The position numbers were made by a program, and so were the translations under genes. The notes beneath the pieces are model-generated. The model was given only the letters and a program-made list of their open reading frames with translations, was not told the DNA's origin and searched no databases. From Parcubacteria group bacterium CG10_big_fil_rev_8_21_14_0_10_36_14 (GTDB lineage: Bacteria > Patescibacteriota > Patescibacteriia > GCA-002772895): DNA of 64,000 bases. Shown here piece after piece: positions 5,467 through 58,704 of the stretch. How positions within the stretch are numbered: position 1 is the first letter of the stretch; every line of letters begins with the position of its first letter. The stretch lies in NCBI GenBank assembly GCA_002772895.1, contig PFCS01000050.1:6728-70727 (forward strand), given 5' to 3'.

Positions 5467-5468
5467 AA

Positions 5469-6125: not shown

Positions 6126-6132
6126 AGATATT

Positions 6133-9155: not shown

Positions 9156-9158
9156 AAA

Positions 9159-9845: not shown

Positions 9846-9969
9846 AAAAATTTATAAAATTGCCTCTACCGCAAATTTATTATTTACGATTATCGGCTAT
9901 CTTTATGTTACTATTGATTTTTTATTTAAAATAAGCTATTCTAAATAAAGAATATCTATTCATTAGAGT

Positions 9970-15001: not shown

Positions 15002-15005
15002 ATTT

Positions 15006-15767: not shown

Positions 15768-16129
15768 ATTATAGATAAAATTTTATCATTTTTAGAATCT
15801 TTGTAATAAATATTTTTTAATTTACGACTCTGATCTATGTCCGGTAAAATAGTTATTTGCGGATTAGCCACAAATACCTGTTCAACCAATAAAGCATCAC
15901 CGTCTCTGTCAATAGAGATACAATTAATATTCATAATTTTTACAATCGGACTTATTAAAATAGCACCTTGGAGTAACGCCCTTCTAATATCGCCATCACT
16001 CACAACTCCAAGTAAAGTATCGTTTGAATCTACAATAAAAGCTGCCCCCTTCTGATTAGAGTTTATTGCCTCCATAGCTTCCATTATATTGGCAGTTTCA
16101 CTAATAACAAGATCGCTATCTTTAAACAT
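15764..16129 (-). CDS. CBS-domain pair protein.
   Basis: 121 aa. ...AAFIVDSNDTLLGVVSDGDIRRAL... and ...LLVEQVFVANPQITILPD... are two CBS-like modules. It overlaps the VTC gene by 4 nt (ATGA). Confidence 0.55.
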   Translation of the reverse strand: MFKDSDLVISETANIMEAMEAINSNQKGAAFIVDSNDTLLGVVSDGDIRRALLQGAILISPIVKIMNINCISIDRDGDALLVEQVFVANPQITILPDIDQSRKLKNIYYKDSKNDKILSII

Positions 16130-19052: not shown

Positions 19053-20657
19053 TTATTTTTTCATCTGGGTTCCAGATAGAATACCTTCGTCCCCATTTAA
19101 TTTTAATTTTCTTACATTATGATAAGTAGGAAAAGCCTCCATTAAAATTCTCCACCGTTTATATAAATCTTCACGCGAACACCATGGTGTATTAATCTGA
19201 ACAACCTCAGGTGTCACGGCAGCATAAGAAACGGTCACTAACGTATCTGTGCTATCAGGAAATACAAGATACCCAAATTTTTCACAAAATTCATAAAGTT
19301 CTGTACCAGGAAGTGGCGTAGTAATCAATGGGGTTATACCCTTAGACCCCATATAATGAAACTTTTCTAAAAATTTTAATGTCTTCTCAAAGCTTCTCTC
19401 GTCTTCACCTTGAATATAAGAGTTCCCTTTACTGTCTCTAAAATAAAACTCTTCGTATTTTGGTACATTTCGATAACTTGATCTTTTTATTTTTCCACCC
19501 GGATAACCAACGATCAAAAAGCAACTGAACGGAAGTTTCGCCTCGTTGCACCAATCAGCTACCTGAAGCGCCTGATCTAAATGTTGAAAAGCATTAAACT
19601 TATTCATGGCTACGAGTATTCGCTCATCACCAGACTCTACTGGCAAATAAAGAATTTCCACTCCTGCTCGCGCTATTGCAAAAACAACTTCTTTGTCCAT
19701 CTTCTCCAACATAACACCATTTGGAAAGGTACATTTCAGATCATGTCCTTTTTCTCGAATTTTTGCAATACCGTCTAAAATTTCGAGAACACGTTTCTTA
19801 TTAAACGTAAAATTATCATCGGCAATCTCTATCCGATTTATGCCAAATTCTTCAATACAAAACCTTATTTCTTTTAATACTCTCTCTGTGGAAAATGCCC
19901 GAAAACGCTGACCCTTTTCTGGAGATGAACAAAATTGGCAATCAAAGGGGCATCCTCTAGAACTAATTAAATGAAGGGTTCTGTCAACTCTATTGCCCCA
20001 TGTAGACAATGTTACATATTCTTCCATGGGTCTAAATCTATAACTTGGAAAAGGTAGCTTATCTATGTCTCTAAATTGCTCTACACGCAAACCCGTATCT
20101 TTAATTGTCCCATCGGGCAAACGACACACTAACCCCGGAATGTTTTCCCAAGGTTCGTCATTCAATATGCGCGTAAAGGCTATTTCACCCTCGCCTCTTA
20201 CCACAATATCAGCTCCCGACTCTTCAATAACCTCTCGTGGCAAAGTAGTTGCCAATACGCCACCGACAACAACTGTTATTTTGGAAAAAATAGATTTTAT
20301 CTTTTTAACCAGCGGATACAAGGCCAATCGAGAATCAGTAAACGGTGCATTAATACCAATAATATCTGTCTCTTTTGGAATACGACCAATAATCCATTCA
20401 TCAGAATGTCCAAAACGCCTAATTGGTTGCTGCCTTAAATTATAAACCTCTTCGCTAATTGCTTCTCCACCCTCCATCATCGGATCAATAAAGGCAATAA
20501 TTAAGTGCCCATTTTCTTCTGCATAAGCACCAACATACCCTAACCCGAGTTGCTGTGATCTAAATTCTACCTCATTGTAAAAGAGCCATGGACAAGCGAT
20601 AAGACATACTTTTTTTCGTAGCAACCTATGTTCTATATTTTCTTCACGCTTTTCCAT
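19053..20657 (-). CDS. B12-binding-domain radical SAM enzyme (class B rSAM; putative methyltransferase).
   Basis: N-terminal cobalamin-binding-like Rossmann segment (KVCLIACPWLFYNEVEF...LGLGYVGAYAEENGH) and radical SAM cluster motif SSRGCPFDCQFCSS. 534 aa. Paralogous to 37111-38520 and 60043-61452. Confidence 0.8.
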   Translation of the reverse strand: MEKREENIEHRLLRKKVCLIACPWLFYNEVEFRSQQLGLGYVGAYAEENGHLIIAFIDPMMEGGEAISEEVYNLRQQPIRRFGHSDEWIIGRIPKETDIIGINAPFTDSRLALYPLVKKIKSIFSKITVVVGGVLATTLPREVIEESGADIVVRGEGEIAFTRILNDEPWENIPGLVCRLPDGTIKDTGLRVEQFRDIDKLPFPSYRFRPMEEYVTLSTWGNRVDRTLHLISSRGCPFDCQFCSSPEKGQRFRAFSTERVLKEIRFCIEEFGINRIEIADDNFTFNKKRVLEILDGIAKIREKGHDLKCTFPNGVMLEKMDKEVVFAIARAGVEILYLPVESGDERILVAMNKFNAFQHLDQALQVADWCNEAKLPFSCFLIVGYPGGKIKRSSYRNVPKYEEFYFRDSKGNSYIQGEDERSFEKTLKFLEKFHYMGSKGITPLITTPLPGTELYEFCEKFGYLVFPDSTDTLVTVSYAAVTPEVVQINTPWCSREDLYKRWRILMEAFPTYHNVRKLKLNGDEGILSGTQMKK

Positions 20658-31676: not shown

Positions 31677-32625
31677 ATAATATTTTTTTCACTTTCTCAG
31701 CAATGAAAATTTCCGTATTTTTCATTGAGTCATAAGTTGCACCACCGATGTGCGGAACAATTATTAGATTATTATGCGACTTAGTATATTCAAGAAGCAA
31801 ATTACCTTTTAAAAATTCTCCACCAGCGGTTTCTTCTGCCATAACATCAAGCCCTGCTCCGGCAATTTTCTTGGCCTTTAAGGCATTTAAAAGCGCGCTT
31901 TCATTTATAATTTTTCCCCGCGAAGTGTTTACTAGATATGCGCTTTCTTTCATCATCTTAAATTCCCGTTCACCTATTAAATCAACCGTCTCTTCATCCA
32001 AAGGCACATGCACGCTAATAAAATCAGCCCGCGACAGAAGCTCTTCAAAAATTGCTGACTCTGCCGCGCCACGCTCAATTTCCTCTTGGTTAACATACGG
32101 ATCATAGGCAACAACATTCATAAAAAACGCATTTCCATATTGAGCAATAATTTTTCCTAGCCGTCCAAAACCAATTATTCCTAAAGTTTTACCACGCAGC
32201 TCTATACCCTTAAAACTATCACGGTCCCAATTTTCTTTTTTCACCGACTCATATGCATCAGGTATATGCCGGATTAAAGCCAAGAACAGTCCCCAAGACA
32301 ATTCTGCAGTAGCTGTTATTGTATTTAAAAATTCCGTCTCCCCCTTTAAGCTTGCAACTTGCACGCCATGCTTCCCTGCCTCTTTCATATCAATATGGTC
32401 CAGCCCGGTTGTCGGACAAGCAATAATTTTTAAATCTTCCGCTGCATCTAAAATCTCTTTATCAATTTTATGTTCTAAACGGATAACTAAAATATCAGCG
32501 TCTTTTACGCCTGCCAGTAATTCACCTCGCGATAATTTCTTTTCTGCAAAAACATCTCCCACCTCTTGATAAATTGCAAGCGCCTCCTTACTGTAATCGC
32601 CGGGTTCACTAATTAAAATTTTCAT
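31675..32625 (-). CDS. D-isomer-specific 2-hydroxyacid dehydrogenase (SerA/GhrB/PdxB-like, NAD-binding).
   Basis: GKTLGIIGFGRLGKIIAQYG (GxGxxG), ...ISVHVPLDEETVDLIGEREFKMMKESAYLVNTSRGKIINESALLNALK...GAGLDV is the D-2-HADH catalytic domain pattern. Confidence 0.8.
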   Translation of the reverse strand: MKILISEPGDYSKEALAIYQEVGDVFAEKKLSRGELLAGVKDADILVIRLEHKIDKEILDAAEDLKIIACPTTGLDHIDMKEAGKHGVQVASLKGETEFLNTITATAELSWGLFLALIRHIPDAYESVKKENWDRDSFKGIELRGKTLGIIGFGRLGKIIAQYGNAFFMNVVAYDPYVNQEEIERGAAESAIFEELLSRADFISVHVPLDEETVDLIGEREFKMMKESAYLVNTSRGKIINESALLNALKAKKIAGAGLDVMAEETAGGEFLKGNLLLEYTKSHNNLIIVPHIGGATYDSMKNTEIFIAEKVKKIL

Positions 32626-35312
32626 AAGTTTGTAATTTTAGACAAAACGTCAGTCGCTATATCCTGACCATTATTTTCAAAAGTATTCTTTCCAAGCTTT
32701 GGAAATCCTCCGCCAAAAAATTCTTTCTTCTGATAGACGGATATTCCCGTCTGGTTGCCGGAAATTATATTGTCATATATTTTTGGTTCAGACAAGTCTT
32801 TCACAGCAATACCCATAACGCATCCATTAAGCTTATTACTAAAAATATCCGGATTAGAGTTTTCTCCCAAACTGATGCATTTATCGCCTGAACTTTTTAC
32901 TTCATTATTCGATATTTCCACGCTGGAACCGGAAATATCAATTCCGTCATTACCGTTACCATCAAAAATGTTGTCATAGATCTTACCACTTATAAAATCG
33001 CCGTCCAAACCGTCAAATCCATTTTTATAAAAATAAGAGTCCACTATTTCTACTTTTGCATTTTTAACATTCAATCCGTCATCCCCGCCGGCATATTTAA
33101 ATTGACAATTTTTTATTGAGATATCCGAACTGTGGCTTGCCAGGGCACCGGAAAAATGAATTCCATTTACGCGAGTATCCCCGCCATATTCAAATTCAAC
33201 ATATTCAAATTCACTCTTCTCCGGCACATCCACTATGCCAAAATTTCCCCAATAATCGTTGGAGTTCGCCGATAAAAATTTAATCGGATAGTCCTTACTT
33301 CCTTTAGCAATAACTGGGCTATAAGAACCGATTGATACTCCTTTTGCCATATAAAAAATTGCACCCGGCTCTATTTTTAGATGAATCCCCTTCGGGACTA
33401 TTAGCGTTTTATTAATATAATACGTACCCGCCGAAACATATGCGTCTCCATTTCCCGTAGCTTTAAACGAAGGATTTTTAGATATAAACTCATTAAGAGA
33501 TAGGTTGATATCATCTAAATTATTAAAATTACTATTATCTATATAAATTACTTCCGAACCCACTTTTTTACCGGTTAAAGAATTATCCAGCTCCATGTCA
33601 ACCGCAAAATCATCCGAATAAAATCCGGTTCCAATGCCTGCGGTAAAAAATATTTTATGGGTTACAGGCTGTAGAATAAAGCCTGTTCTTACATATTCAT
33701 CGTCATACTTATCAGCAGGAGGAACAAGTTTGGAAGATAGCACTATTTTCTGTTCTCCAAATTTAGCTTCTCCGTCCTTGTTAACAGTGTCTTTTTCTAA
33801 AAGAATATCGGCCGAGGTTAATTTTCCATCCATATCGCTGTCATAATAAGCGCTTACCAGAAAACCAGGAACAAGCCCGCTTATTTTTATTTCTTTTATC
33901 GTCATATCCACCGCGCTGTTTACCGTTATATCAGCCTCTGCAATTTCATAGTTTAAGAATGAATTTTTGTTATAGATAACCTTTGTAAAGGCTTCCGATT
34001 TTTTAAGATATTCTTTTATGAAATTAAAATTACTTTCTATCAAGCTCCTTGTTTCCTTATAACCCTTGATAAAAGTGCTATTTGAAAAATTCTTTTTCGA
34101 ATCCTTAAAAAATTCAATGCGGACGCTGTTGTATAAATCATCTATAAACTTTAAATCATCTTTAAGATTATCTTTGTCGCTAACATAATCCCAAGCCCTT
34201 TGGTTTATTTCAGTGGCAAAATCTGGAGATTCTAAAACGCGCGTTATAAGAGGATTAAAGAAAAGATAAGGAGAACCGATTGAAGCCAGGTCATTTCCCT
34301 CTGATTGCCAAGTAAAAAATTTAAATTTTCCATTTGTATTATCATAATACAAGTTCATGTTATGTCTCCAGTCCTCATGATTTCCACCAATTAAAAGTGT
34401 GTGCAAATACCACTCCATAAAACTTTTCTTATCTACAATATTAAAAATATTGTCATGAAATTCTTCTTGGTCTGCCTGGTTTACTAAATATGTAAGGCGA
34501 GCAATTGCCACGTAATTATCCGGTCTCTCGCCCGGATCAGCAACTCTTTTATCCCAATAATAAGGATCTTCAAAAATATATTTTTCATTTATATACCTTT
34601 CCGTAAAAAAATCAGTATCTCCAGAAAGTTTGTTTGTTTCCAGAAACTCTTTGCTCCATTGATTTATCTTATAATAAACTCCATATGCCTTGCCATTTAT
34701 CCTAAGCAACACAAAATCGCTGTCCAACACCTTTAATCCAATCTTTTCCGCTCTATAGTTATTGAACGGTTCAAGTAAATCACCGCCCACAATAAGATTT
34801 ATCGCACTCGTCCCTTCAAAAATCGCAGAATCACTAAATCTTATGCGCCATGATTTTTTATCATATCTCCAATGAAAATCAGAATTGCCTCTATATCTTA
34901 CCTCAACATTATAACTCTTACCCCCATATGAAAACTTGGCATTTATATACTTTTGATTTTCCTCAACAAACATCGCACCTTCTTCGGTTGGCAACGAATC
35001 ATTTATTTTCTTCCAATCTTTCTCGTCTATTATCAAATCGTAAACAGGCAGGTCTGGTTTCTTAAAAGAATAAATCAAATACGGCGCATCTTGGATCTTG
35101 CGCACAATTTTATCGGCCCATTTTGAATAAGGTGCTGGAAGTATGCTAAAAAGATATCTTTTTTTAATGCCATAATCATAAAAAAGAGATACAAGCACAA
35201 CCAAAACAATCAGATTGGCCACAAAAAGGCACCTGAAAAATATCTTTCTAAATACAGGGCTTCTTAATTTGTTATTTAATAACTTTATATATCTTAATAT
35301 CATCTGAATCAT
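32622..35312 (-). CDS. Large membrane-anchored/secreted protein: N-terminal CotH-family (atypical kinase) domain fused to a C-terminal right-handed parallel beta-helix (pectate-lyase/NosD-like) repeat domain.
   Basis: N-terminal TM segment (FFRCLFVANLIVLVVLVSLF). CotH-like core reads FSYGGKSYNVEVRYRGNSDFHWRYDKKSWRIRFSD...INLIVGGDLLEPFNNYRAEKIGLKV...LRINGKAYGVYY. C-terminal beta-helix repeats read NGFDGLDGDFISGKIYDNIFDGNGNDGIDISGSSVEISNNEV...GISVY. Paralog at 55840-58659. Confidence 0.65.
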   Translation of the reverse strand: MIQMILRYIKLLNNKLRSPVFRKIFFRCLFVANLIVLVVLVSLFYDYGIKKRYLFSILPAPYSKWADKIVRKIQDAPYLIYSFKKPDLPVYDLIIDEKDWKKINDSLPTEEGAMFVEENQKYINAKFSYGGKSYNVEVRYRGNSDFHWRYDKKSWRIRFSDSAIFEGTSAINLIVGGDLLEPFNNYRAEKIGLKVLDSDFVLLRINGKAYGVYYKINQWSKEFLETNKLSGDTDFFTERYINEKYIFEDPYYWDKRVADPGERPDNYVAIARLTYLVNQADQEEFHDNIFNIVDKKSFMEWYLHTLLIGGNHEDWRHNMNLYYDNTNGKFKFFTWQSEGNDLASIGSPYLFFNPLITRVLESPDFATEINQRAWDYVSDKDNLKDDLKFIDDLYNSVRIEFFKDSKKNFSNSTFIKGYKETRSLIESNFNFIKEYLKKSEAFTKVIYNKNSFLNYEIAEADITVNSAVDMTIKEIKISGLVPGFLVSAYYDSDMDGKLTSADILLEKDTVNKDGEAKFGEQKIVLSSKLVPPADKYDDEYVRTGFILQPVTHKIFFTAGIGTGFYSDDFAVDMELDNSLTGKKVGSEVIYIDNSNFNNLDDINLSLNEFISKNPSFKATGNGDAYVSAGTYYINKTLIVPKGIHLKIEPGAIFYMAKGVSIGSYSPVIAKGSKDYPIKFLSANSNDYWGNFGIVDVPEKSEFEYVEFEYGGDTRVNGIHFSGALASHSSDISIKNCQFKYAGGDDGLNVKNAKVEIVDSYFYKNGFDGLDGDFISGKIYDNIFDGNGNDGIDISGSSVEISNNEVKSSGDKCISLGENSNPDIFSNKLNGCVMGIAVKDLSEPKIYDNIISGNQTGISVYQKKEFFGGGFPKLGKNTFENNGQDIATDVLSKITNL

Positions 35313-37104
35313 ATACTTTTATTAACCAGTCTTCGCCTTCCAGACTGCTATTTTTTATAAAATCATAAATGCCTTCACTTTTATAGGCACCAAAATACAA
35401 ATAATCAATCTTATATTTATTGATCAAATAATGGATATTGCGCGGATACGCCATATACAATTTCGATATGTCGCCAAGCTTTTCCGCAATAAGCTTTTCT
35501 GCTGTTTTCTCATATTCTGGATCTTTTTTGAATTGGCTACCAATTCTTGTATCACTAAAATAATCTCCAAATAAATACAGCGAATCTTTATTTATTATCC
35601 CATCAAAAACATCTTGCGAAACATTAAACAGCTTATGGACAATAATCCACCGGTCATAAAGCTCTTCGGAAGATCCAGGAAACATCATTGGGTCTCCGTA
35701 CATTACTTTGCCAGAAGTATATACGGGCACCAAAAAATTTATAAAAAGCGACGGAGAAACAACGACCGCATCTTTTTCTATATTTTTATCCATCCATTCC
35801 AGCGAATTACTAATATTTTTAGGGATAGTATGAGCCGGATAATCCATTATCCCCCTATATATATTTACATGAACTGCGCGTGCTGTTATTATAAGCGCCA
35901 ACAAAATAAAACATCCGGTCACAATCTTTCGCCTCGTCGGATATTTCGCTTCCAACCACTTATATAAAGTATAGGCAAAGGCTATCCAAGCCAAAGCAAA
36001 TCCGTAATAAAATTGATGGTAATACCAATTTGTAGCAAAAGGCGAATATCCTCCAAAAAGCTGGATATTAAGCAGGAATATTGGCGCCAATGCAAAGCCT
36101 ATTAAATATATGGCAGTCTTTTTTTCTTTTATTGTTTTCCAAATAAGCAAAGCAAAAGCAACATACAGTAGATATTCGAAAACATGCCGTCCCAAGCGGA
36201 GCGTCCTGCCAAATTCGCCCCCTAAACGCAAGAATATGTCCGTTGACCACGGAAGGGACTTAAGAGCAAAGAAATTAAAGAAAAATAGCGATGAAATCAG
36301 CATGGCCAGCATTAAAATCCAAAAAATTCTTTTTGCCACCAAATGGTCTTTAAATAATAAAAATAATATCATCATTATCCCCAAAGCAGTCCAAATGTAC
36401 ATAGCGCTTGTTGGAAAAAAATAAACGAGCAAACCACTAAATATTCCGGCTAAGGCTATATACAACTTCTTTCCTTTTGTTATGGCTAAATATGTAAAAA
36501 GAAAGGTTAGAGAAAAAGGAATAAGCCCCGGCAATACCGATACGCTGTCATATTTATTCGTAAGGATGTGGATTGGCGGGCTACCCAAAAAAGTCAGCGT
36601 TCTTACAGAAATCTTTATCTGCTCCAATGTAATGGGAAATATCAGATAAAAAATATTTGCGGCTGAAGTAAAAACAAGAGAAGAAAAAATGCTAAAATAT
36701 CGGTTGCCGGTTATATTTTTTATAATCAAATAAAAAATTAAAAAGGTAAAAAAACCCACAATAAAATATCCCACCAAATAAAGATACTGCAGGGAGCCAA
36801 ATAGAGCAACCAGAGGAAAAAGAAGCCATGCATTATAATATGTACTCCAAAGCGCAGGCGCGTGCATATACTCATATGTTGCGCCGTCAGACCCCAGCCA
36901 ATGCCCATCCAAAAGATCCCTTATTTGCGGAGCAATAAAAGTGATTGGATCAGGCGCTCCTGGCACAAAATCACTATAAGGTAAACCATATTCTTTCAAT
37001 TTGAAAAAAGCTGACGCTTTAGTTAAATCAAAAATACAACCCGCAACTATGGCGGATAATAATACTGCTACTATAAGTAATGTCTTTTTCTTTTTTTTAT
37101 CCAT
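35272..37104 (-). CDS. Large polytopic membrane protein with C-terminal extracytoplasmic domain; candidate GT-C-fold glycosyl/oligosaccharyl transferase or polymerase.
   Basis: 610 aa, more than 12 predicted TM helices, then a ~200-aa soluble C-terminal domain (YPAHTIPKNISNSLEWMDKNIEKDAVVVSP...). No diagnostic motif recognised. Overlaps the downstream gene by 41 nt. Confidence 0.45.
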   Translation of the reverse strand: MDKKKKKTLLIVAVLLSAIVAGCIFDLTKASAFFKLKEYGLPYSDFVPGAPDPITFIAPQIRDLLDGHWLGSDGATYEYMHAPALWSTYYNAWLLFPLVALFGSLQYLYLVGYFIVGFFTFLIFYLIIKNITGNRYFSIFSSLVFTSAANIFYLIFPITLEQIKISVRTLTFLGSPPIHILTNKYDSVSVLPGLIPFSLTFLFTYLAITKGKKLYIALAGIFSGLLVYFFPTSAMYIWTALGIMMILFLLFKDHLVAKRIFWILMLAMLISSLFFFNFFALKSLPWSTDIFLRLGGEFGRTLRLGRHVFEYLLYVAFALLIWKTIKEKKTAIYLIGFALAPIFLLNIQLFGGYSPFATNWYYHQFYYGFALAWIAFAYTLYKWLEAKYPTRRKIVTGCFILLALIITARAVHVNIYRGIMDYPAHTIPKNISNSLEWMDKNIEKDAVVVSPSLFINFLVPVYTSGKVMYGDPMMFPGSSEELYDRWIIVHKLFNVSQDVFDGIINKDSLYLFGDYFSDTRIGSQFKKDPEYEKTAEKLIAEKLGDISKLYMAYPRNIHYLINKYKIDYLYFGAYKSEGIYDFIKNSSLEGEDWLIKVYDSDDIKIYKVIK

Positions 37105-37110
37105 ACTGCT

Positions 37111-38520
37111 CTACTTTGTTGGGCGCAAATAATTAAAAACTCGCTTTAATATAAGCTTCAAATGCGCGGGCGATCTTAAATCCCGTAAAACGTTAAAAAC
37201 AATTCTTGGCCTTAACCAAAACCCCAAAAAAATCTTCCTATGCCATTTTTTTAAAGTTTCTCTACTAATACCCTTTGGACAAACAGTAATATTATCAAAG
37301 CGTATCTTGTCCCAATCAACGCCATCAATCCGCCCACTTTCTTTGAGCCATGTATACATTTCCGATCCTGGGAGTGGAAGATAAAAATTAAACCCAGCCC
37401 TATCCAGCATAAGCTTTCTAGAAAATTCATAAGTTTGCCTCAAATCATCCTCATTTTCCTCGGGATAACCGATTATAAAAGCACCACCAGTCCTAAATCC
37501 CATTTTTCTAATGGCTTTTATTCTTTCTTCAACCATTTCTTTTTTTATGTGCTTATTCATATGGTCCATAATCCTCTGGGAACCAGACTCAATTCCTACA
37601 TGAATTGCATAAAACCCAGCTTTTTTCATTAATTTCAAAAGCTCGTCATCCAGCGTGTCCAAGCGAAGACCATTTGCACCAAAAAGCGAAATATTAAAAT
37701 TATTAGCCACTATTTTCTCAAGTACCTCTACTGCACGCGCCCTATGGGCTGTAAAATTATCATCCATAATATGAAATTCCTTGATACCATATTTTTCTAT
37801 CGCCCATTTCATTTCCTCTATAATATTATCCGCGCTTCTCATCCTCATATTTCTACCAACCACCGACTTTGAGGCGCAAAAAGTACAATTATAAGGGCAT
37901 CCTCGCGAAGTTACCAAATAGCCGATAGGGAGCTGTTTAAAGAAACTTCCGGCTGGTGCCTCGGGATATTCACCGGGTGGCATAAAGTCCCACGCCGGAA
38001 ACGGAAGACTATCTAGGTCTTCTTCAAAATAAACGGGATTAAAAAAAACTTCCCCTTCGCTTCTATAAACAAGTCCGGGAATATGGCTTAGGGGTATGTC
38101 TTTATTTTGAAATAATTTTTCAAGGAGCATCTTTAGACCTTTTTCTCCTTCACCCTTAAAAGCAAAGTCAATTTTATCAAAGTAGCCCATCAATTCTTTT
38201 GAATCTATAGCTGAAGCATGCGGACCACCAATTACCACAAGGACTTCTGGATTAGCTTCTTTTGCTACATTAATTTGCTCTTTTACTATTTTTATATTGT
38301 TTGAATACACCGTAACCCCTATGACATCCGGCTTTTTTTCCAAAACATATTCTTTAAATTTTTCTGGCGATACTTGTTTTAGGGTACAATCAAGAATTTC
38401 AATATTACTCCATCCATCTTTTCTTAAATATGAAGCAAGATAGCCCAAAGAAAGAGGCGGAGTTATTGCATAACCAAGAGTGCTAAAGGGTTTAACAAAT
38501 AAAATTTTCTGCTCTTTCAT
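37111..38520 (-). CDS. B12-binding-domain radical SAM enzyme (class B rSAM), paralog 2.
   Basis: N-terminal B12-binding-like region (ILFVKPFSTLGYAITPPLSLGYLASYLRKDG) and cluster motif TSRGCPYNCTFCAS. 469 aa. Confidence 0.8.
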   Translation of the reverse strand: MKEQKILFVKPFSTLGYAITPPLSLGYLASYLRKDGWSNIEILDCTLKQVSPEKFKEYVLEKKPDVIGVTVYSNNIKIVKEQINVAKEANPEVLVVIGGPHASAIDSKELMGYFDKIDFAFKGEGEKGLKMLLEKLFQNKDIPLSHIPGLVYRSEGEVFFNPVYFEEDLDSLPFPAWDFMPPGEYPEAPAGSFFKQLPIGYLVTSRGCPYNCTFCASKSVVGRNMRMRSADNIIEEMKWAIEKYGIKEFHIMDDNFTAHRARAVEVLEKIVANNFNISLFGANGLRLDTLDDELLKLMKKAGFYAIHVGIESGSQRIMDHMNKHIKKEMVEERIKAIRKMGFRTGGAFIIGYPEENEDDLRQTYEFSRKLMLDRAGFNFYLPLPGSEMYTWLKESGRIDGVDWDKIRFDNITVCPKGISRETLKKWHRKIFLGFWLRPRIVFNVLRDLRSPAHLKLILKRVFNYLRPTK

Positions 38521-38529
38521 AAAAAATCA

Positions 38530-39258
38530 TTACTTTTTAAATTTATTTATTACCATTCCGTACTCTTTTAGAGTTTTAATTAAATTCATCTTACTCTTCC
38601 CTTTTTTTAATCCGTAATTATAAACAAGAGGGCATTCATCAATTTTCTTAACAAATTTTCTTAATTTTAATAAAATCTCTAAATTGGCCGCAAAAGAATT
38701 TGTAGTAATAAAATTATTCCCATAAAATGCCAATGCTTTTTTTAGAATTTCTGCCCGATACGCGCGATAAAAAATAGAATAGTCCGTCACATTTGGCAAG
38801 TGGACCAATAACTTGACAATACTATTTACTACATTGCTACCAATGGTGCGGTACAACGGAAAGTTTTTATAACTTCCGCCCGCTATGTAGCGGGAACCTA
38901 TAACTATATCGCTTCCTAAATTTATTTTTTCTATCATCTCAGGCATTAAGGAAAGCTTACTCGTATTATCCGCTTCCATAATCAAAACGATATCGTCGTC
39001 CTCCGCATTAACACAAGCCGCCGTAATACCATCAAAAAAAGTCCTTGGTACGCCCAAATTTTTAGCGTGAACAAGAATTTCTAAATCCATCTGATTTTTA
39101 AAATTCATTGCTAGTTCTTTTGTTTTATCCGTGCTTCCATCGTCAACTAAAATTACTTTTTTATCAAAAATTAATTTTATATTCTTAATGCTAGACAATA
39201 AATCAACGACATTCTCGTCCTCATTATAGGCAGGGATAATTATAAATATTTTTTTCAT
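38530..39258 (-). CDS. Polyprenol-phosphate sugar synthase, GT2 (DPM1/GtrB-like).
   Basis: KIFIIIPAYNEDENVVDLLSSI...VILVDDGSTDKTKELA...VLIMEADNT are DPM1 hallmarks. 242 aa. It lies immediately downstream of the B12-rSAM gene (9-nt gap). Confidence 0.8.
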   Translation of the reverse strand: MKKIFIIIPAYNEDENVVDLLSSIKNIKLIFDKKVILVDDGSTDKTKELAMNFKNQMDLEILVHAKNLGVPRTFFDGITAACVNAEDDDIVLIMEADNTSKLSLMPEMIEKINLGSDIVIGSRYIAGGSYKNFPLYRTIGSNVVNSIVKLLVHLPNVTDYSIFYRAYRAEILKKALAFYGNNFITTNSFAANLEILLKLRKFVKKIDECPLVYNYGLKKGKSKMNLIKTLKEYGMVINKFKK

Positions 39259-39328: not shown

Positions 39329-40351
39329 CTATTTTTTAAAAAAATGTATATTATCTTTAATCCACTTATATAAAATATCAATTCCATCCTCATAATTAGT
39401 TATCGGTTCCCATCCCAAATTCAATTTAAGTTTAGAATTGTCACTTATAAAAATCTTCTGATCACCAATACGCATTTCTCCATGACCAAAATTCAGTTTT
39501 GTCCCCATTTTTTCTTCCAGTAGTCTAACAAAGCTAACTAAAGATAACGAATTTTCCACTCCTCCGCCAATGTTATAAATTTGTCCTGCAGTTATATTAA
39601 TATTTTTGATCGCCATATCATATGCCCTGATTAGATCATCAACAAATAATATATCTCGTACCTGAAAACCATCGCCATATATCATCATTGGTTGATCGGT
39701 CATAGCCACAATAATAAACCAAGCGACCCAGCCTTGATCTTCTTTGCCAAATTGACGATAACCATAAATACAGGACTGCCTAAAAACAACTGTCCGTAAA
39801 TTAAATATTCTGGAATAATCTCTAAAATATTGATCTGCCGAGCCCTTTGAACATCCATAAGGCGAATGAAAATCTAAAGGATACTCCTCTTTTATACCCC
39901 TTGGATAATCAGTGAGTTTGTAAGCATCACCGCTTAACTCAATCTTTTCATTTTCCATTCCACCATAAACCTTATTTGTTGAAGAATATATAATAACTGG
40001 ATTCTGAGCTGAAATCCTTACTGCTTCAAGAAGATTAAAGGCGCCTAGTGCATTACTTTCAAAATCTTCTCGCGGATTCAAAACTGATGAAGTAACTGCT
40101 ACTTGAGCGGCTAAATGTAGAACTACATCAAACCGATAATCAGAAAAAAGATGACTTAGTTCTTCAAAATTTCGAACATCGCCTTTAATAAATTTAAATT
40201 GCCCAAAAGTTTTTAACCATTCAAGATTTTTTTCAACCCCTACTCGACAAAGGTTATCAAAAATGACGACGTCGTGTCCGTCAAGTATAAATTTTTTAGC
40301 AGCATTTGAACCAATAAATCCCGCTCCGCCGGTAATTAATATTTTACTCAT
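39329..40351 (-). CDS. NAD-dependent SDR epimerase, CDP-paratose/tyvelose 2-epimerase-like.
   Basis: MSKILITGGAGFIGSNAAKKFILDGHDVVIFDNLCRVGVEKNLEWL closely parallels the RfbE/CDP-tyvelose-2-epimerase N-terminus (…FDNLSRKGAxxNLxWL). 340 aa. Confidence 0.7.
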   Translation of the reverse strand: MSKILITGGAGFIGSNAAKKFILDGHDVVIFDNLCRVGVEKNLEWLKTFGQFKFIKGDVRNFEELSHLFSDYRFDVVLHLAAQVAVTSSVLNPREDFESNALGAFNLLEAVRISAQNPVIIYSSTNKVYGGMENEKIELSGDAYKLTDYPRGIKEEYPLDFHSPYGCSKGSADQYFRDYSRIFNLRTVVFRQSCIYGYRQFGKEDQGWVAWFIIVAMTDQPMMIYGDGFQVRDILFVDDLIRAYDMAIKNINITAGQIYNIGGGVENSLSLVSFVRLLEEKMGTKLNFGHGEMRIGDQKIFISDNSKLKLNLGWEPITNYEDGIDILYKWIKDNIHFFKK

Positions 40352-41154
40352 AACTTTTTTGCTGTAATCGTATAATTAGTGCCATTGTTAAGTCCAGCTT
40401 CGTGCTGCTTTGTCCTTTTAATTATTGCCTTTAGCATGCTTTTGTTTGAAGAGCTAAACGGAACATATCCGATTGTTTTTATAAAAAATTGTTGAAGGGC
40501 TGAAAGTGGCATTAAAACGTCATACCACTTCATATGCTTTGGCGAATGAGTATATTTTATTTCCACCACTTCAAAACCGGCTGATTTTAAAAGCTCTTCC
40601 CATCTTTCTTTTGTAAACAGGTTATAATGCTTAAAAATCTTATTTACAGAATTCATATAAGCCTTAGCCAAAAAACCAAGCCCTAGCTTGTTAAAAATTT
40701 TTGGATAAAATAAATCCGTCATATAAAAATTAGAGTGTGTGGTAAAAAAGAACACGCCTCTCGGAGCCAACACCCTGTACGCCTCTCTTACTGTTTCTTC
40801 CACCGCGGGAATATGTTCTATGACGCAATTTGATATCGCCATACTAAAACGGTTGTCTGGAAAAAGCATTTTATGCGAAGGGACACATTTTACTTCCTTA
40901 TATATACCGGATTTCTCCGCTCCTCGGCATGCACTCTCAGATATGTCCAGTCCATAAATTTCCCTGAGCACACCTTTGTCTTCCTGTTCTTTGCCCTCTA
41001 AAATCATTTTCAAAAAACTGCCATCGCCACAGCCTAAATCAAGCATCGGATAAGAAAAATCCTTACCAACCATTTCAGTATATTCCCACACCCTGCAAAG
41101 CGCATGGGAAATAGAATATTTTTTCGATGCTTTATTATAAAAATTATCAAGCAT
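40348..41154 (-). CDS. Class I SAM-dependent methyltransferase.
   Basis: LDLGCGDGSFLKMI (motif I), ...GLDISESA... and ...SNCVIEHIP...LAPRGVFFFTT. Overlaps the SDR gene by 4 nt. Confidence 0.75.
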   Translation of the reverse strand: MLDNFYNKASKKYSISHALCRVWEYTEMVGKDFSYPMLDLGCGDGSFLKMILEGKEQEDKGVLREIYGLDISESACRGAEKSGIYKEVKCVPSHKMLFPDNRFSMAISNCVIEHIPAVEETVREAYRVLAPRGVFFFTTHSNFYMTDLFYPKIFNKLGLGFLAKAYMNSVNKIFKHYNLFTKERWEELLKSAGFEVVEIKYTHSPKHMKWYDVLMPLSALQQFFIKTIGYVPFSSSNKSMLKAIIKRTKQHEAGLNNGTNYTITAKKL

Positions 41155-54709: not shown

Positions 54710-55717
54710 TTACCTATTGCGTTTTAATATTTTTTGAGTAGCCTCCAAAATACGGACCACCTCATAGCCTTCTTCTCCGCCGGTTAAAGAAGGTTTGCCA
54801 TTCACCGCGCAATCCGCAAAATGGCTTATTTCTATAGCTAGTGCTTCGGACCGTTCCAATGCCGGAATATAGACATCACCGCTCCTGTATATTACGTCAC
54901 TTGGTGTCTCACTTTTAAAATCCAAGTCTGCTCCATGATCATACACCTTGACTTTTTCAGTTGGTTCTATATCGTTATATAAAACCATTTTTTTGCTTCC
55001 GCCAATCAACATTTTTCTTATTTTAACCGGTGAGAGCCATCCTATGTGTATGTGCGCCATGGTCCCAGAAGGATATTCCAAATGAATATGCGCCATTTCC
55101 TCTACTGGATTTTCTCTGTTCTGCGTAACATAACTTTTCCCAAAAGCCGCCACAGACATAGGCTTTTCCTTTAAAATATAATTAAAAATCGAAAGATCAT
55201 GAACTGCCAAGTCATAAATGACATTTACATCCGGCTGTATAAGCCCGAGATTAATCCTTTCGGAATCAATATACCTTATTTCTCCCAATTCATCAGCATT
55301 AATAAGCTCCTTTATTTTCCTGACAGCGCCAGTATAAATAAACGTATGGTCAACATGAAGTAATAAATTATTTTTCTTTGCCAATTCAATCAATTCTCTT
55401 GCTTCGGCGGATGTTTCAGTCATAGGCTTTTCAACAAAAACATGCTTACTCGACTCCAAAGCACGTTTGGCTAGCTTATAATGGCTCACAACCGGCGTTG
55501 CTATAAAAACAGCTTCAATATCTTTTGCCTTAAATATGTCTTCGGAATCACAAGTGGTTTTTATAAATGGAAAATTACTTCTTGCCCTTTCCAAAAGCCT
55601 GAGGTCCAAATCACATACATAGACCAAAGAAACGCTTGCGGACGAAGCTGCATTTCGTATCAAGTTTTTTCCCCAGTAACCTGCGCCAATAATTGCTATT
55701 TTTAACGGGTATTCCAT
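54710..55717 (-). CDS. Gfo/Idh/MocA-family NAD(P)-dependent sugar dehydrogenase (WbpB/WlbA-like UDP-sugar 3-dehydrogenase).
   Basis: LKIAIIGAGYWGKNLIRN (Rossmann) and ...HVFVEKPMTET... (the EKP motif of the Gfo/Idh/MocA family). 335 aa. Confidence 0.8.
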   Translation of the reverse strand: MEYPLKIAIIGAGYWGKNLIRNAASSASVSLVYVCDLDLRLLERARSNFPFIKTTCDSEDIFKAKDIEAVFIATPVVSHYKLAKRALESSKHVFVEKPMTETSAEARELIELAKKNNLLLHVDHTFIYTGAVRKIKELINADELGEIRYIDSERINLGLIQPDVNVIYDLAVHDLSIFNYILKEKPMSVAAFGKSYVTQNRENPVEEMAHIHLEYPSGTMAHIHIGWLSPVKIRKMLIGGSKKMVLYNDIEPTEKVKVYDHGADLDFKSETPSDVIYRSGDVYIPALERSEALAIEISHFADCAVNGKPSLTGGEEGYEVVRILEATQKILKRNR

Positions 55718-55839: not shown

Positions 55840-58659
55840 ATGCTCAAAATAATAATTGAAAAGCACAAAAAGAAACTGCTGGCATGCGCGGTGTTATTTA
55901 TTATCGGTATTTTATCTGCCAATTTATTTTTCTTGGGAATATATATAAGAAACAACAAAAATATCTTGATTTTTGATTCTGCAGTACAATATCTCCTACC
56001 TGTTTATCGATTTATGCGCAAAAGTTATAATAACGCGATAAATACGTTCTATCTGCCAAAAACAATAGGGGCATCGGAAATACCCCACTACAAATTGACG
56101 ATTAAAAAAAATCAGCTGGAAAAATTAAATAAAAATTTGCCTGAGTCGATATCCGATGCCGTTTTTAGCGGAAGTGTTTTCTTGGAGGACGAATATAAGA
56201 AAACAGTGCCCGCAATCTTTTCTTATGGTGACAAAAAATACGAAGTAGAGGTACATTACCGAGGTGACAACCCAAACCATTGGACCAAAGAAAAAAAATC
56301 TTGGCAAATAATATTCAGCCAGGAAAACTTATTTAACGGCCAAGAAGTGTTAAAACTTATATTGCCCATAGACCGAGGTTATCTTGCGGAGGCTCTAAAT
56401 GCTTATCGGGCAAAAAAAATGGGTCTATTGGTGCCTGCGGACAATTTTGTAAATTTAGAAATAAATAAAAAAAATGCTGGCGTATATTACCAAGTCGAAG
56501 ATTGGTCAAAAGGATTTTTGGAAAAACAACAAGTGCCGGCCGACTCCAGTATTTATACGACCAATGACGGTCTTATTAGCCTCAGAAAAGAAGAAAACCG
56601 CCAAGATACATCAGCCTTTGAAGATATAAATCTTTGGAAAAAAAATATATCTGATAAATTATTTACTTATAATAATTTTTCAGATATAAAAAAACTGGTC
56701 GAAATACTGCAAAGCCAAAATAAAGACGAAGCATACAAAATATTGCCACAAATACTTGATATGGAAAAGTTTTACAGCTGGACTAACGTTGCCCTATTGG
56801 TTTCAGGAGGCCATCAGGGAGGTAAAGGCAATATGCGTCTATACTTTAACAATAGTAGCGGAAAATTTGAACCAATCCCTTGGGATGTAACAATAAGAGA
56901 TAGCGATGCGCTTTTTGAAGACTGGCAAAGTATCATCAATAACTTTATATATTCAAATAAAAAATTATTTTTTGAACAAAAAAAATCCCTGTGGAATTAT
57001 TTAAGTAACGAAGATAATTTAAAAGACGACCTAAGCTTTTATGATAAACTTTATGAAACAACACGCCCAGCTTTTTACGATGATTGGATAAAAGTAGACA
57101 ATAATTTAACCTTTGATAAAAAAATAAAAGAAATGCGCGATATTATTAAAAATAGGTTTAGTAATCTAAAAGATCTTTATAAAATTGATAATTCAAGCAT
57201 GATTATAAATTATGACTCCGATATAAATCTGATAACGGCAACGACTAAAGCGGATAATTTCGCCGGCATAATGCTAAAAAGCCTTAAACTACCGACAGAC
57301 GACAATATGTTTGTTGAAGCATTTGATGATTCCAATAATAATCTTAAACTTGATAAGGACGATAAAATCATAAAAACCGGCTACATCAATAAAAATGACA
57401 ACACAATAAAAGATATTAATAAATTAATTTATGATAAAGATGAAGTGGCCATATTCATAAAAATTATTCCTTATGGAACACAGCAAAACGGCTTAAATCT
57501 TAAAAATGTAAAAATAAAATTTGACAATGCAATCACCAAAAAAGATATTGATATAAAAAGCATAGTCTTATCAGACGACACCTCTTTTAATTATCTTCCC
57601 AAGACTATCTATAGTCCTCGGCAATTTGTAAACGAAAATCCCATATTTAAAACAGATGGAGAAAAAATATTTCTACCCGCTGGCTCTTATACCATCACAA
57701 AAAATATAATAATTCCGCAAAAATCCCAGTTGATAATACAGCCTGGCGTTGTCCTAACCTTTTATCCAAAAATATCACTCATATCTTACAGCCCTGTTTC
57801 GGCAATTGGCTATTCCGATAGTCCTATTATATTCCAATCCGCCTATCAAGGGCAACCGTGGGGATCTTTTGGCATAGTTAATACCGAGAAAGAAAAAAAC
57901 AAGCTACAATTTATAAATATATCCGGTGGTGGGAGTTCTTATATAAACGGTATTTTCTTTAGTGGAATGTTATCAGCCTACCATGCCGACCTTGAATTAA
58001 GCGATAGTTTAATTCAAAACAGCTCATCGGATGACGGCGCAAATGCAAAGTACGGAAATGTGGTAATAAAAAATAACAGATTTATAAAAAATAGTGCGGA
58101 CGGCTTGGATATAGACTACGCAAAAGGAGAGATAAGTAATAATTATTTTAGTAGCAATGGCAATGACGGCATAGATATCTCCGGTTCTTCAATCAGTATT
58201 AAAAATAATACAATACTTGCATCAGGGGACAAATGTATAAGCGTAGGAGAGAATTCAAAAGAGCCGGTTATTTTTAATAATATTTTAAATGGATGTAATA
58301 TAGGAATAGAATCAAAAGATTTATCAACCCCGGTTATTTTGAATAATGTCATTATAAATAATAATATAGGCATAAATGCCTATAGAAAAAAAGAGATTTT
58401 TGGTGGCGGATTTGGAAAAATATATAACAATATTATCTGGGACAATAAAGAAAATATAAAAACGGATGAATACTCACAATTCGAAGCTGATTACAACGAC
58501 ATTGAAACCAACTATTCAGGAGAGTATAACTTTTATGAAGAGCCATCTGAAAATTATTATAAACCGGGTTTAGAAAATTATCACGGTAAAGGAAACCGGG
58601 ACATTCTAAAAAAATATCTTGAAATTAATCTTGAGGAAGCTCCGGTAGGGCTAATGTAA
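55840..58659 (+). CDS. CotH-family domain fused to a right-handed beta-helix repeat domain (paralog of 32622-35312), membrane-anchored/secreted.
   Basis: TM anchor LLACAVLFIIGILSANLFFL. CotH-like FSYGDKKYEVEVHYRGDNPNHWTKEKKSWQIIFSQENLF...LKLILPIDRGYLAEALNAYRAKKMGL. Beta-helix repeats ...DGLDIDYAKGEISNNYFSSNGNDGIDISGSSISIKNN...NIGINAY... are colinear with the other copy. Confidence 0.65.
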   Translation: MLKIIIEKHKKKLLACAVLFIIGILSANLFFLGIYIRNNKNILIFDSAVQYLLPVYRFMRKSYNNAINTFYLPKTIGASEIPHYKLTIKKNQLEKLNKNLPESISDAVFSGSVFLEDEYKKTVPAIFSYGDKKYEVEVHYRGDNPNHWTKEKKSWQIIFSQENLFNGQEVLKLILPIDRGYLAEALNAYRAKKMGLLVPADNFVNLEINKKNAGVYYQVEDWSKGFLEKQQVPADSSIYTTNDGLISLRKEENRQDTSAFEDINLWKKNISDKLFTYNNFSDIKKLVEILQSQNKDEAYKILPQILDMEKFYSWTNVALLVSGGHQGGKGNMRLYFNNSSGKFEPIPWDVTIRDSDALFEDWQSIINNFIYSNKKLFFEQKKSLWNYLSNEDNLKDDLSFYDKLYETTRPAFYDDWIKVDNNLTFDKKIKEMRDIIKNRFSNLKDLYKIDNSSMIINYDSDINLITATTKADNFAGIMLKSLKLPTDDNMFVEAFDDSNNNLKLDKDDKIIKTGYINKNDNTIKDINKLIYDKDEVAIFIKIIPYGTQQNGLNLKNVKIKFDNAITKKDIDIKSIVLSDDTSFNYLPKTIYSPRQFVNENPIFKTDGEKIFLPAGSYTITKNIIIPQKSQLIIQPGVVLTFYPKISLISYSPVSAIGYSDSPIIFQSAYQGQPWGSFGIVNTEKEKNKLQFINISGGGSSYINGIFFSGMLSAYHADLELSDSLIQNSSSDDGANAKYGNVVIKNNRFIKNSADGLDIDYAKGEISNNYFSSNGNDGIDISGSSISIKNNTILASGDKCISVGENSKEPVIFNNILNGCNIGIESKDLSTPVILNNVIINNNIGINAYRKKEIFGGGFGKIYNNIIWDNKENIKTDEYSQFEADYNDIETNYSGEYNFYEEPSENYYKPGLENYHGKGNRDILKKYLEINLEEAPVGLM

Positions 58660-58673
58660 AACAAAAAACAACC

Positions 58674-58704
58674 AGAAATGCCACTATTTTTTAGTGGCAT
58701 TTTT
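58674..58704. terminator. Intrinsic terminator hairpin between convergent genes (CotH paralog on +, GT-C membrane protein on -).
   Basis: aaatgccacta-ttttt-tagtggcattt is an 11-bp perfect stem, extendable by G-U and A-T pairs, with a 5-nt loop and a T-tract downstream on +. The minus-gene stop codon (cta at 58684-58686) lies inside the left arm. Confidence 0.65.

Follow-up and report, generated by a model that had tools for sequence, protein, structure and literature searches.

Two gene modules in a Parcubacteria envelope-glycan locus place a B12-binding-domain radical SAM gene between a predicted polyprenyl-phosphate sugar synthase and a polytopic membrane protein

The stretch of 64,000 nucleotides analysed here (the window; positions 6,728 to 70,727 of contig PFCS01000050.1 from Parcubacteria group bacterium CG10_big_fil_rev_8_21_14_0_10_36_14) is one long envelope-glycan locus with 29–38% G+C in which nearly all genes lie on the minus strand. 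Its glycan genes encode an initiating phosphoglycosyl transferase, a Wzx flippase, GT1 and GT2 transferases and aminotransferases, together with two NeuB-type nonulosonic-acid blocks and two TagB/F-like glycerophosphotransferases. The same locus is carried by several groundwater metagenome contigs. Two modules within the window share one gene order, all on the minus strand: a GT2 glycosyltransferase is followed by a radical S-adenosylmethionine (SAM) protein with a B12-binding domain, which is followed by a polytopic membrane protein.

Module A is made up of GT2-A (38530–39258, 242 amino acids), rSAM-A (37111–38520, 469 amino acids) and MemA (35272–37104, 610 amino acids), with gaps of 9 and 6 nucleotides. 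Module B is made up of GT2-B (61483–62178, 231 amino acids), rSAM-B (60043–61452, 469 amino acids, TTG start) and MemB (58684–60033, 449 amino acids), with gaps of 30 and 9 nucleotides. The exact start of rSAM-B is uncertain, and its homologues align from residues 12–38. A third radical SAM protein, rSAM-C (19053–20657, minus strand, 534 amino acids), lies outside any cassette of GT2 and GT-C glycosyltransferases.

An earlier note, made from the sequence alone, had listed the two GT2 and three rSAM open reading frames (ORFs), and all five exist with the boundaries given above. The 9- and 30-nucleotide gaps that it reported between the rSAM and GT2 genes are also correct. Its gene order, rSAM and then GT2, is reversed, because on the minus strand GT2 lies upstream of rSAM. 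The two-gene arrangement it described is a genuine pair but is incomplete, as the polytopic third gene was missed in each module. The term "repeated module" overstates the likeness of the two. The two module rSAM proteins are 31% identical, the two GT2 proteins are 28% identical, and no similarity between MemA and MemB is detectable. These values led to the rejection of a recent tandem duplication, and the two modules are old paralogues rather than a recent repeat. The identity between rSAM-A and rSAM-C is 25%.

All three rSAM proteins match both PF02310 (B12-binding) and PF04055 (radical SAM) above the gathering thresholds, in the profile hidden Markov model (HMM) check that the earlier note had proposed. 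The scores for PF02310, which has a gathering cut-off of 32.1 bits, are 68.5 bits for rSAM-A, 46.1 for rSAM-B and 54.1 for rSAM-C; those for PF04055 are 103, 94.1 and 68.7 bits. Each protein contains exactly one CxxxCxxC motif, at residues 208, 197 and 236, respectively, as had been claimed. In rSAM-A the motif is C208-x3-C212-x2-C215, and the protein is predicted to lack an auxiliary cluster because it contains only five cysteines in total. The architecture predicted for all three is of class-B type, with a B12-binding Rossmann-type domain and a radical SAM core. The last 50 residues have a net charge of +12 in rSAM-A, +11 in rSAM-B and +4 in rSAM-C, and the tails of the first two are rich in aromatic residues. 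The basic C-termini of rSAM-A and rSAM-B suggest an interfacial membrane anchor. The gene for rSAM-C is wedged between a TagB/F-like glycerophosphotransferase gene and the genes for NeuB, NeuA and NeuC, directly before which the earlier note had correctly placed it. This protein may modify a nonulosonic acid or a substituent joined through a phosphodiester.

Placement against characterised class B enzymes relied on HMM scores as a proxy. None of the three rSAM proteins reaches a curated NCBIfam cut-off. For rSAM-A, the scores in bits (cut-offs in parentheses) are 197 (575) for the Sden_1168 P-methyltransferase, 189 (481) for BchE, 172 for ApyD, 166 (577.6) for HpnJ, 144 (360) for the MgmA family, 142 (600) for PhpK, 99 (650) for HpnR and 86 (500) for AprD4 (NF033070). 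The best family for rSAM-B is HpnJ (TIGR03471), with a nearly full-length match of 256 bits (577.6) and an E-value of 5e-76, followed by BchE (TIGR02026) at 206 (481); the score is 154 for ApyD and 106 (500) for AprD4. Its scores on the methylase families are lower than those of rSAM-A. The best match of rSAM-C is to Sden_1168, at 149 bits (575), with HpnJ at 95, BchE at 69 and AprD4 at 66. Matches to rSAM_ladder_B12 score 113–115 bits. Assignment to a characterised NCBIfam family failed for the window proteins and also for 28 members of the rSAM-A clade, which show the same near-tie of families and no match better than E 1e-66. No phosphoenolpyruvate mutase or other phosphonate genes and no hopanoid genes (shc, hpnH, hpnG, hpnI or hpnK) are present among the annotated window ORFs. 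With regard to BchE, the context in the window is purely glycan biosynthesis and not bacteriochlorophyll.

There are more than 3800 homologues of rSAM-A at E ≤ 1e-20. The AlphaFold2 model of rSAM-A has a predicted local distance difference test (pLDDT) score of 91. In a Foldseek search this model is most similar to MgmA (9ccb, E 2e-26) and AprD4 (6fd2, 7e-26), followed by TsrM, OxsB, TokK and CysS. The highest TM-score belongs to AprD4 (TMq 0.74). The model does not separate a methylase from a non-methylase, as MgmA and AprD4 tie. These two are also the best solved relatives by sequence, with AprD4 the best for rSAM-B (E 1e-25). The sequence match between MgmA and rSAM-A extends into the N-terminal domain, from residue 96.

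The same architecture is used for methylation, ring contraction (OxsB, HpnJ), cyclisation (BchE) and thioether formation (PMC12931638, PMC13459092). Methylation is the commonest activity of the class, and for these rSAM proteins it would be an assumption only. The earlier note had treated them as methylators; this is not borne out by family placement, in which the nearest families mix methylases with non-methylases. Clustering with BchE-like non-methylating clades, which that note had named as an argument against methylation, is found in part, for rSAM-B, where HpnJ ranks first and BchE second.

The GT2 proteins match PF00535 with 75.6 bits (GT2-A) and 119 bits (GT2-B). In agreement with the DPM1/GtrB-like assignment made earlier, the best structural relative of both is the Pyrococcus dolichol-phosphate mannose synthase 5mlz (E 3e-23 for GT2-A and E 2e-24 for GT2-B), followed by ArnC and GtrB for GT2-A and by ArnC for GT2-B. 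The top NCBIfam models, all below their cut-offs, are ArnC, PpgS, AglJ and the Dol-P hexose transferase for GT2-A, and AglJ (104 bits), PgfS and the Dol-P hexose transferase for GT2-B. On this basis, GT2-A is described as DPM1/ArnC-like and GT2-B as DPM1/AglJ-like. The acidic motif read from the sequence is EAD in GT2-A (MEADNTS) and DAD in GT2-B (QDADLEY). Neither protein has a transmembrane segment, and human DPM1 likewise has none. Both are predicted to be polyprenyl-phosphate sugar synthases with a presumed lipid acceptor.

The third partners differ between the modules. MemB scores 20.1 bits on PMT_2, which has a cut-off of 26.1. Its homologues at 33–56% identity carry PF13231, and two of them are named "glycosyltransferase family 39 protein" in the source. 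When MemB is combined in one profile with the PMT_2 neighbours of rSAM-B relatives, the sole PDB match is yeast Pmt2 (6p25, E 1e-3). The PF13231 homologues and the Pmt2 profile match identify MemB as a GT-C glycosyltransferase of the GT39/PMT_2 type, resembling ArnT and PMT.

MemA is polytopic, with approximately 10 hydrophobic segments, and has no Pfam, NCBIfam or PDB relative, profile searches included. An exhaustive HMMER search of 1.84e9 representatives found 708 relatives. The long relatives are N-terminal fusions to GT2 (five), GtrA_DPMS_TM (two), class-I methyltransferase (two) or GT1 (one) domains. An ORF of 855 amino acids at 8416–10983 of locus L085 (loci of relatives are designated by L numbers) is a GT2::MemA-like fusion that overlaps the gene of the closest rSAM-A homologue (52% identity) by 4 nucleotides. 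Its GT2 part shares 31% identity with GT2-A; the MemA-like part shares 38% with MemA (hhalign E 8e-92). A deeper MemA profile matches the PMT_2 core weakly (hhalign probability 46%, E 2e-4). Acidic residues D52 and E78, after the first hydrophobic helix, are near-invariant. An AlphaFold2 model of MemA built from four sequences has a pLDDT of 43 and is unusable. Mainly because of the fusions, MemA is regarded as a probable consumer of polyprenyl-phosphate sugar, that is, an unclassified, GT-C-like transferase. An unrelated Wzy-like polymerase serving the downstream Wzx/nonulosonic-acid block was considered for MemA because two of its homologues adjoin Wzx without an rSAM. It was rejected as the main reading on the GT2::MemA and GtrA::MemA fusions and on the GT2::MemA fusion beside the closest rSAM-A homologue.

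The gene linkage is maintained in close homologues: orthologues of both module rSAM proteins and of MemB have GT2 beside rSAM, most of them together with a GT-C-type gene. In the set of rSAM-A homologues at 52–54% identity, L086 has the order rSAM-GT2 and L087 has GT2-rSAM-PMT_2-methyltransferase with a 4-nucleotide overlap. The fuller order in L087 is UDP-glucose dehydrogenase, short-chain dehydrogenase/reductase (SDR), GT2, rSAM and PMT_2, and SDR genes also precede GT2-rSAM in L026 and L030. Locus L085 has a PMT_2/methyltransferase gene, the rSAM gene, the GT2::MemA-like fusion and a methyltransferase/PMT_2 gene, with 4-nucleotide overlaps. Loci found through MemB orthologues are similar: L163 (56% identity) has PMT_2-GT2-rSAM-PMT_2-GT2-methyltransferase, and L164 (49%) has GT2-rSAM-PMT_2 and two further rSAM genes. 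The order GT2-rSAM-PMT_2 is kept in L090, L163 and L164.

A survey of rSAM-A covered 77 species-level relatives from Aminicenantes, Omnitrophota, Elusimicrobia, Planctomycetota, Nanoarchaeota, Bathyarchaeia and other taxa. A GT2 occupies a flanking position in 16 of the 77 and a polytopic protein in 21; both occur within three genes of the rSAM gene in 23. At the flanks of the rSAM gene, GT2 and polytopic proteins show an approximately four-fold enrichment over a background of 275 genes located at least four positions away in the same loci (odds ratio ~4, Fisher p 6e-4 to 2e-5). Among the relatives of rSAM-B, which come from metagenomes and are 37–73% identical to it, GT2-B-like genes (170–360 bits) and polytopic proteins recur in shuffled order. 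Seven of 10 polytopic neighbours are PMT_2 proteins and one of 10 is STT3/AglB. Of the 14 rSAM-B relatives scoring 400 bits or higher, 9 have a GT2 within three genes. Beside rSAM-B relatives, class-I methyltransferases show a 13-fold enrichment (p 5e-9). The GT-C types beside relatives are PMT_2 and STT3; a YfhO-like match is weak and below threshold.

Clustering of 171 rSAM ORFs at approximately 34% identity places rSAM-A and rSAM-B in separate clusters, with the association present in both, and leaves rSAM-C as a singleton. Because the adjacency is conserved in orthologues, enriched among relatives and present in both clusters, it is taken to be functional and not coincidental. The conserved rSAM/GT2 coupling proposed in the earlier note is thereby upheld, as the neighbourhood survey found the adjacency in related and unrelated genomes. 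The linkage to GT2 and GT-C genes is a frequent theme and not a universal rule.

Several fusions occur in loci of relatives. PMT_2 GT-C proteins carry fused class-I methyltransferase domains in L085 (4622–6961 and 10980–13256) and L089 (3353–5656), and so does a GT2 in L037 (4409–5839). Such fusions would imply a link between methylation and the lipid-linked sugar machinery. In L065 (6001–9717) and L066 (6001–9720), single ORFs of 1238 and 1239 amino acids combine a B12-binding rSAM with two GT4/GT1 modules; they come from unrelated metagenome-assembled genomes (Parcubacteria and Alphaproteobacteria). The rSAM-GT4 and GT2-methyltransferase fusions tie this rSAM group to sugar chemistry. In L036 (2009–4432) an rSAM is fused with a FemAB/GNAT-like domain. 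Loci L055, L059 and L133–L136, and also L028 and L074, carry three to five paralogous B12-binding rSAM genes in tandem; some lack a GT2 nearby. These arrays suggest iterative or combinatorial radical tailoring.

Two genes upstream of GT2-A are tentative members of module A. The first, directly upstream (39329–40351, minus strand), encodes an SDR-type NDP-sugar epimerase/dehydratase that matches PF16363 and PF01370 and does not reach the dTDP-glucose dehydratase or GalE cut-offs. It possibly supplies the nucleotide sugar to the module. The second (40348–41154, minus strand) overlaps the SDR gene by 4 nucleotides and encodes a class-I SAM methyltransferase (Methyltransf_23/11), a tentative second tailoring activity. 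Class-I SAM methyltransferase genes are unusually dense across 22136–63277, with at least nine in the locus. They start at 22136, 28737, 40348, 41269, 44185, 45172, 49955 and 52470, and others lie in flanking blocks. A GFO_IDH_MocA gene is located at 54710–55717.

Each module also adjoins one of two full-length CotH paralogues, which are 35% identical over approximately 900 amino acids. One (32622–35312, minus strand) is directly downstream of MemA and the other (55840–58659, plus strand) is convergent with MemB. Both consist of an N-terminal transmembrane segment, a CotH kinase-like domain and a right-handed beta-helix/NosD domain. As conserved cassette partners these proteins were rejected, since homologues were not found beside rSAM relatives elsewhere. 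The pairing may be lineage-specific, and the CotH proteins could be acceptors or extracellular enzymes. The space between the convergent MemB and CotH genes contains a bidirectional terminator-like hairpin (58674–58704), with T-runs on both strands and a perfect stem of 11–13 base pairs. Transcription of module B probably ends there, as judged from a consensus scan only. A promoter scan of the window gave counts no higher than those of shuffled controls.

Elsewhere in the window, a third lipid-sugar-synthase set without an rSAM gene is present at 5149–7125 (minus strand). It comprises an SDR epimerase/dehydratase (6133–7125), a GT2 of 242 amino acids that scores 212 bits on the model of PpgS (polyprenyl-phospho-GalNAc synthase) and a DUF2304 membrane protein of 105 amino acids (5149–5466). 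After NeuC, and in the same orientation, genes for a CBS-domain protein, a VTC-domain protein and a DUF4956 protein occupy 14321–16129 (minus strand). They include a polyphosphate-related pair within the glycan locus.

The two modules are tentatively interpreted as three-component extracytoplasmic glycosylation cassettes of the Gtr/Arn type, in which the rSAM would tailor a polyprenyl-phosphate sugar before the sugar is flipped and transferred. This interpretation, which is drawn from sequence comparison, is placed slightly below an even chance. As homology suggests, the short DPM1-like GT2 would work at the cytoplasmic face, where it would load a monosaccharide onto polyprenyl phosphate with a nucleotide sugar as donor. 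The rSAM, held at the membrane by its basic, aromatic-rich C-terminal helices, would then abstract a hydrogen from the lipid-linked sugar and yield a modified sugar with the anomeric phosphate retained. Cobalamin-dependent C-methylation would be the single likeliest chemistry, with radical epimerisation or AprD4-like deoxygenation as alternatives. The tailored donor would be flipped across the membrane; no flippase was identified within the two modules. Outside, MemB or MemA would pass the modified sugar to an envelope glycan or protein, as family membership and fusions suggest. Class-I methyltransferases that accompany the GT2 or GT-C proteins, or form fusions with them, could add a second, conventional methylation.

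The order of these steps follows from the location of the cofactors and partners. An rSAM needs cytoplasmic SAM and reductant, and GT-C enzymes work at the outer face, so the rSAM step would precede flipping. The position of the rSAM gene between those of the synthase and the consumer, often with overlaps, points to tailoring at the membrane on a lipid-linked monosaccharide, as do the methyltransferases fused to GT2, GT-C and MemA-like proteins. Because a GT-C enzyme needs a glycosyl donor, chemistry that keeps the anomeric phosphate (C-methylation, epimerisation or deoxygenation) is more plausible than ring contraction of the HpnJ/Cds type, despite HpnJ topping the scores of rSAM-B.

This arrangement is similar in part to several known systems. 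In one group of three-component systems, a polyprenyl-phosphoribose synthase and a MATE flippase act with a GT136 enzyme and auxiliary epimerases (PMC11127046). Like these and like GtrA/GtrB/GtrC, CsbB/GtcA/YfhO and PgfS/PgfM, the modules combine a predicted GT2 synthase with a transferase, which is a GT-C enzyme of the PMT_2 type in the case of MemB and a probable GT-C-like one in the case of MemA, the family of which includes GT2 and GtrA fusions. In such systems, further sugar variants can come from auxiliary enzymes. Unlike any of those described, the modules have a B12-domain rSAM gene between these two genes, and they are without an identified flippase gene. In the ArnC-ArnD-ArnT pathway, and in DprE1/DprE2 with arabinosyltransferases, a lipid-linked sugar is modified cytoplasmically and then transferred outside by a GT-C enzyme. 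ArnD deformylation and DprE1/E2 epimerisation are known tailoring steps on the lipid carrier. The same logic of loading, tailoring and transfer would apply here; ArnC is among the best matches of both GT2 proteins, and the gene order in L087 is reminiscent of Arn. The Arn and Dpr systems differ in that their tailoring enzyme is a deformylase or an oxidoreductase pair and their sugars and acceptors are known.

Other comparisons concern the radical enzymes themselves. In HpnI/HpnK/HpnJ, which make bacteriohopanetetrol cyclitol ether, and in Cds, an rSAM reworks a hexose on a lipid (PMC13459092). As proposed for the modules, a sugar (in these systems a hexose) is first attached to a lipid by a glycosyltransferase and then reworked by an rSAM, which in the hopanoid pathway is the class-B-type HpnJ. 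In contrast, the lipid in the Hpn and Cds systems is a hopanoid or a glycerol dialkyl glycerol tetraether (GDGT), the product is an end-product head group, and there is no GT-C partner. The scores of the window proteins are under half of the HpnJ cut-off, and the hopanoid context is missing. GenK, GenD1, MoeK5 and Fom3 are listed among the cobalamin-dependent rSAM C-methylases, with MoeK5 a Csp3-methylase (PMC12931638). These share with the window proteins the two-domain architecture and, as proposed here, carbohydrate substrates. They differ in serving antibiotic secondary metabolism, and none is among the NCBIfam matches listed. MoeK5 methylates the sugar of a lipid-phosphoglycerate-linked intermediate. 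AprD4 (6fd2) is similar in its sugar substrate and N-terminal Rossmann-like domain, in addition to being the best or near-best solved relative. It differs in that it binds no cobalamin (PMC12931638) and acts on a soluble pseudodisaccharide, and its family cut-off is not reached by the window proteins. No paper was found that joins a radical SAM enzyme with a polyprenyl-phosphate sugar synthase and a GT-C, although coverage of the literature was incomplete and an earlier mention is possible. The statement in the earlier note that this is not a described pathway is therefore retained for the combination but not for the tailoring of lipid-linked sugars itself, for which precedents exist.

A number of observations weigh against the cassette interpretation. 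The sequence data fit action on a lipid-linked sugar or on a nucleotide sugar alike. The assignment of MemA as GT-C is weak, as it depends on fusions and a weak profile match. The nearest curated families of the rSAM proteins include non-methylating enzymes (HpnJ, BchE and AprD4). Bacteria of the candidate phyla radiation (CPR) are generally without cobalamin synthesis. An Rfam scan of the window found no cobalamin riboswitch and no other RNA. AprD4 and ArsL hold a similar domain and yet bind no cobalamin (PMC12931638). The linkage is also not universal, with only about 20–30% of relatives having a GT2 at a flanking position, and the background for the enrichment is small and comes from the same glycan-rich loci. 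A MemB relative from Uhrbacteria (L165, 35% identity) has no adjacent rSAM, and two MemA homologues (L088 and L089) adjoin Wzx without an rSAM. The rSAM-B relatives in L091 (6001–7224) and L092 (6001–7236), which are 52–56% identical to rSAM-B, have no GT2, polytopic or methyltransferase neighbour. These two genes adjoin ORFs of 312 and 739 amino acids.

If the cassette is kept and only the substrate is changed, the rSAM could act earlier, on an NDP-hexose that it would C-methylate, epimerise or deoxygenate, after which the GT2 would load the modified sugar. This main alternative is unlikely on the present evidence. SDR genes often precede GT2-rSAM (39329–40351 in the window; L087, L026 and L030), the rSAM has no transmembrane segment, and the fusions in L065 and L066 are to GT4 domains, which are Leloir glycosyltransferases that use nucleotide sugars. 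However, the rSAM gene is found between GT2 and GT-C and not amid nucleotide-sugar genes, the methyltransferases fused to GT2, GT-C and MemA-like proteins point to tailoring at the membrane, and the strongly basic C-terminal tails hint at membrane association. To our knowledge, no B12-domain rSAM acts on a nucleotide sugar. A different change, to the chemistry, would leave the lipid-linked sugar as substrate and make the Rossmann domain structural, with a cobalamin-independent reaction such as AprD4-like diol dehydration to a deoxy sugar, or epimerisation. Such a reaction would suit CPR bacteria, which are not expected to make cobalamin, and possible redox partners are nearby (the SDR at 39329–40351 and the GFO_IDH_MocA gene at 54710–55717). 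AprD4 has a sugar substrate and no bound cobalamin (PMC12931638); among solved structures it is closest to rSAM-B (E 1e-25), and it is the top TM-score match of the rSAM-A model (0.74). The sequence match to AprD4 is nevertheless confined to the radical SAM core (residues 168–401 and 193–395), and the NCBIfam AprD4 model, which has a cut-off of 500 bits, gives 86 and 106. The B12-binding Pfam domain is above its gathering threshold in all three proteins, and for rSAM-A the cobalamin-binding MgmA is an equally good relative that reaches further into the N-terminal domain. The cobalamin-independent alternative is accordingly considered rather improbable.

Two further alternatives are both judged quite improbable. 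In the first, a ring contraction like that of HpnJ or calditol synthase would convert a lipid-linked hexose to a carbocyclic head group, so that the product would be a membrane lipid and not a donor. Of the curated families, HpnJ scores highest for rSAM-B (256 bits, E 5e-76), and HpnI-HpnK-HpnJ and Cds are the sole described cases in which an rSAM reworks a lipid-linked hexose made by a glycosyltransferase (PMC13459092). Against this, the score is far under the HpnJ cut-off of 578, no shc, hpnH, hpnG or HpnK-type deacetylase gene adjoins the modules, and the GT2 proteins are DPM1-like, with HpnI not among their NCBIfam matches. From the chemistry of glycosyl transfer, a product that loses its anomeric centre could not be a GT-C donor. 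The other alternative regards the rSAM as a mere co-resident of large glycan loci, so that its position beside GT2 and GT-C would have no mechanistic significance. Its substrate might then be the tail of a polyprenyl or membrane lipid, an acceptor that is a protein or peptide, or some metabolite unrelated to the cassette. Many class-B-type rSAM enzymes modify lipid tails (HpnP/R, GDGT-modifying enzymes and the ladderane family; PMC13459092), and the window proteins have matches to rSAM_ladder_B12 (113–115 bits) and to the peptide-acting ApyD (172 and 154 bits). Most relatives lack a flanking GT2, and the tandem arrays in L055, L059 and L133–L136 occur without one. Mere co-residence is difficult to reconcile with a trio that is kept in close orthologues with stop/start overlaps and shuffled in distant phyla, with an enrichment that survives a background from the same loci, or with the GT2::MemA fusion beside the rSAM-A orthologue and the rSAM-GT4 fusions. 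Precursor-peptide-like or lipid-synthesis genes do not flank the modules.

The recurrence of the trio in many uncultured bacteria and archaea suggests a previously undescribed way of altering a sugar on its lipid carrier. It is possible, rather than probable, that the modules belong to a widespread and undescribed branch of glycobiology. In such a branch, class-B-type rSAM chemistry (for example, C-methylation to a branched-chain sugar) would act on polyprenyl-phosphate monosaccharides, and GT-C enzymes, including MemA, would then install the product on the envelope. This branch would span CPR bacteria, DPANN archaea, Omnitrophota, Elusimicrobia and other groups, and it would make the surface glycans of genome-reduced symbionts dependent on scavenged cobalamin. 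The rSAM proteins with B12-binding domains are a very large group, most of which is without an assigned function; for at least two clades with thousands of members, the genomic link now offers a substrate hypothesis that can be tested. The MemA family, with no Pfam model, approximately 700 representative relatives and frequent fusions to GT2 or GtrA, is a candidate for a new family of GT-C-like transferases. If the cassette interpretation is correct, radical chemistry would join the few known tailorings of lipid-linked sugars, alongside ArnD deformylation, DprE1/E2 and the auxiliary epimerases of three-component systems. Unusual surface sugars (C-methylated, deoxygenated or epimerised) would also be predicted in uncultured CPR bacteria and DPANN archaea, the envelopes of which are almost unknown.

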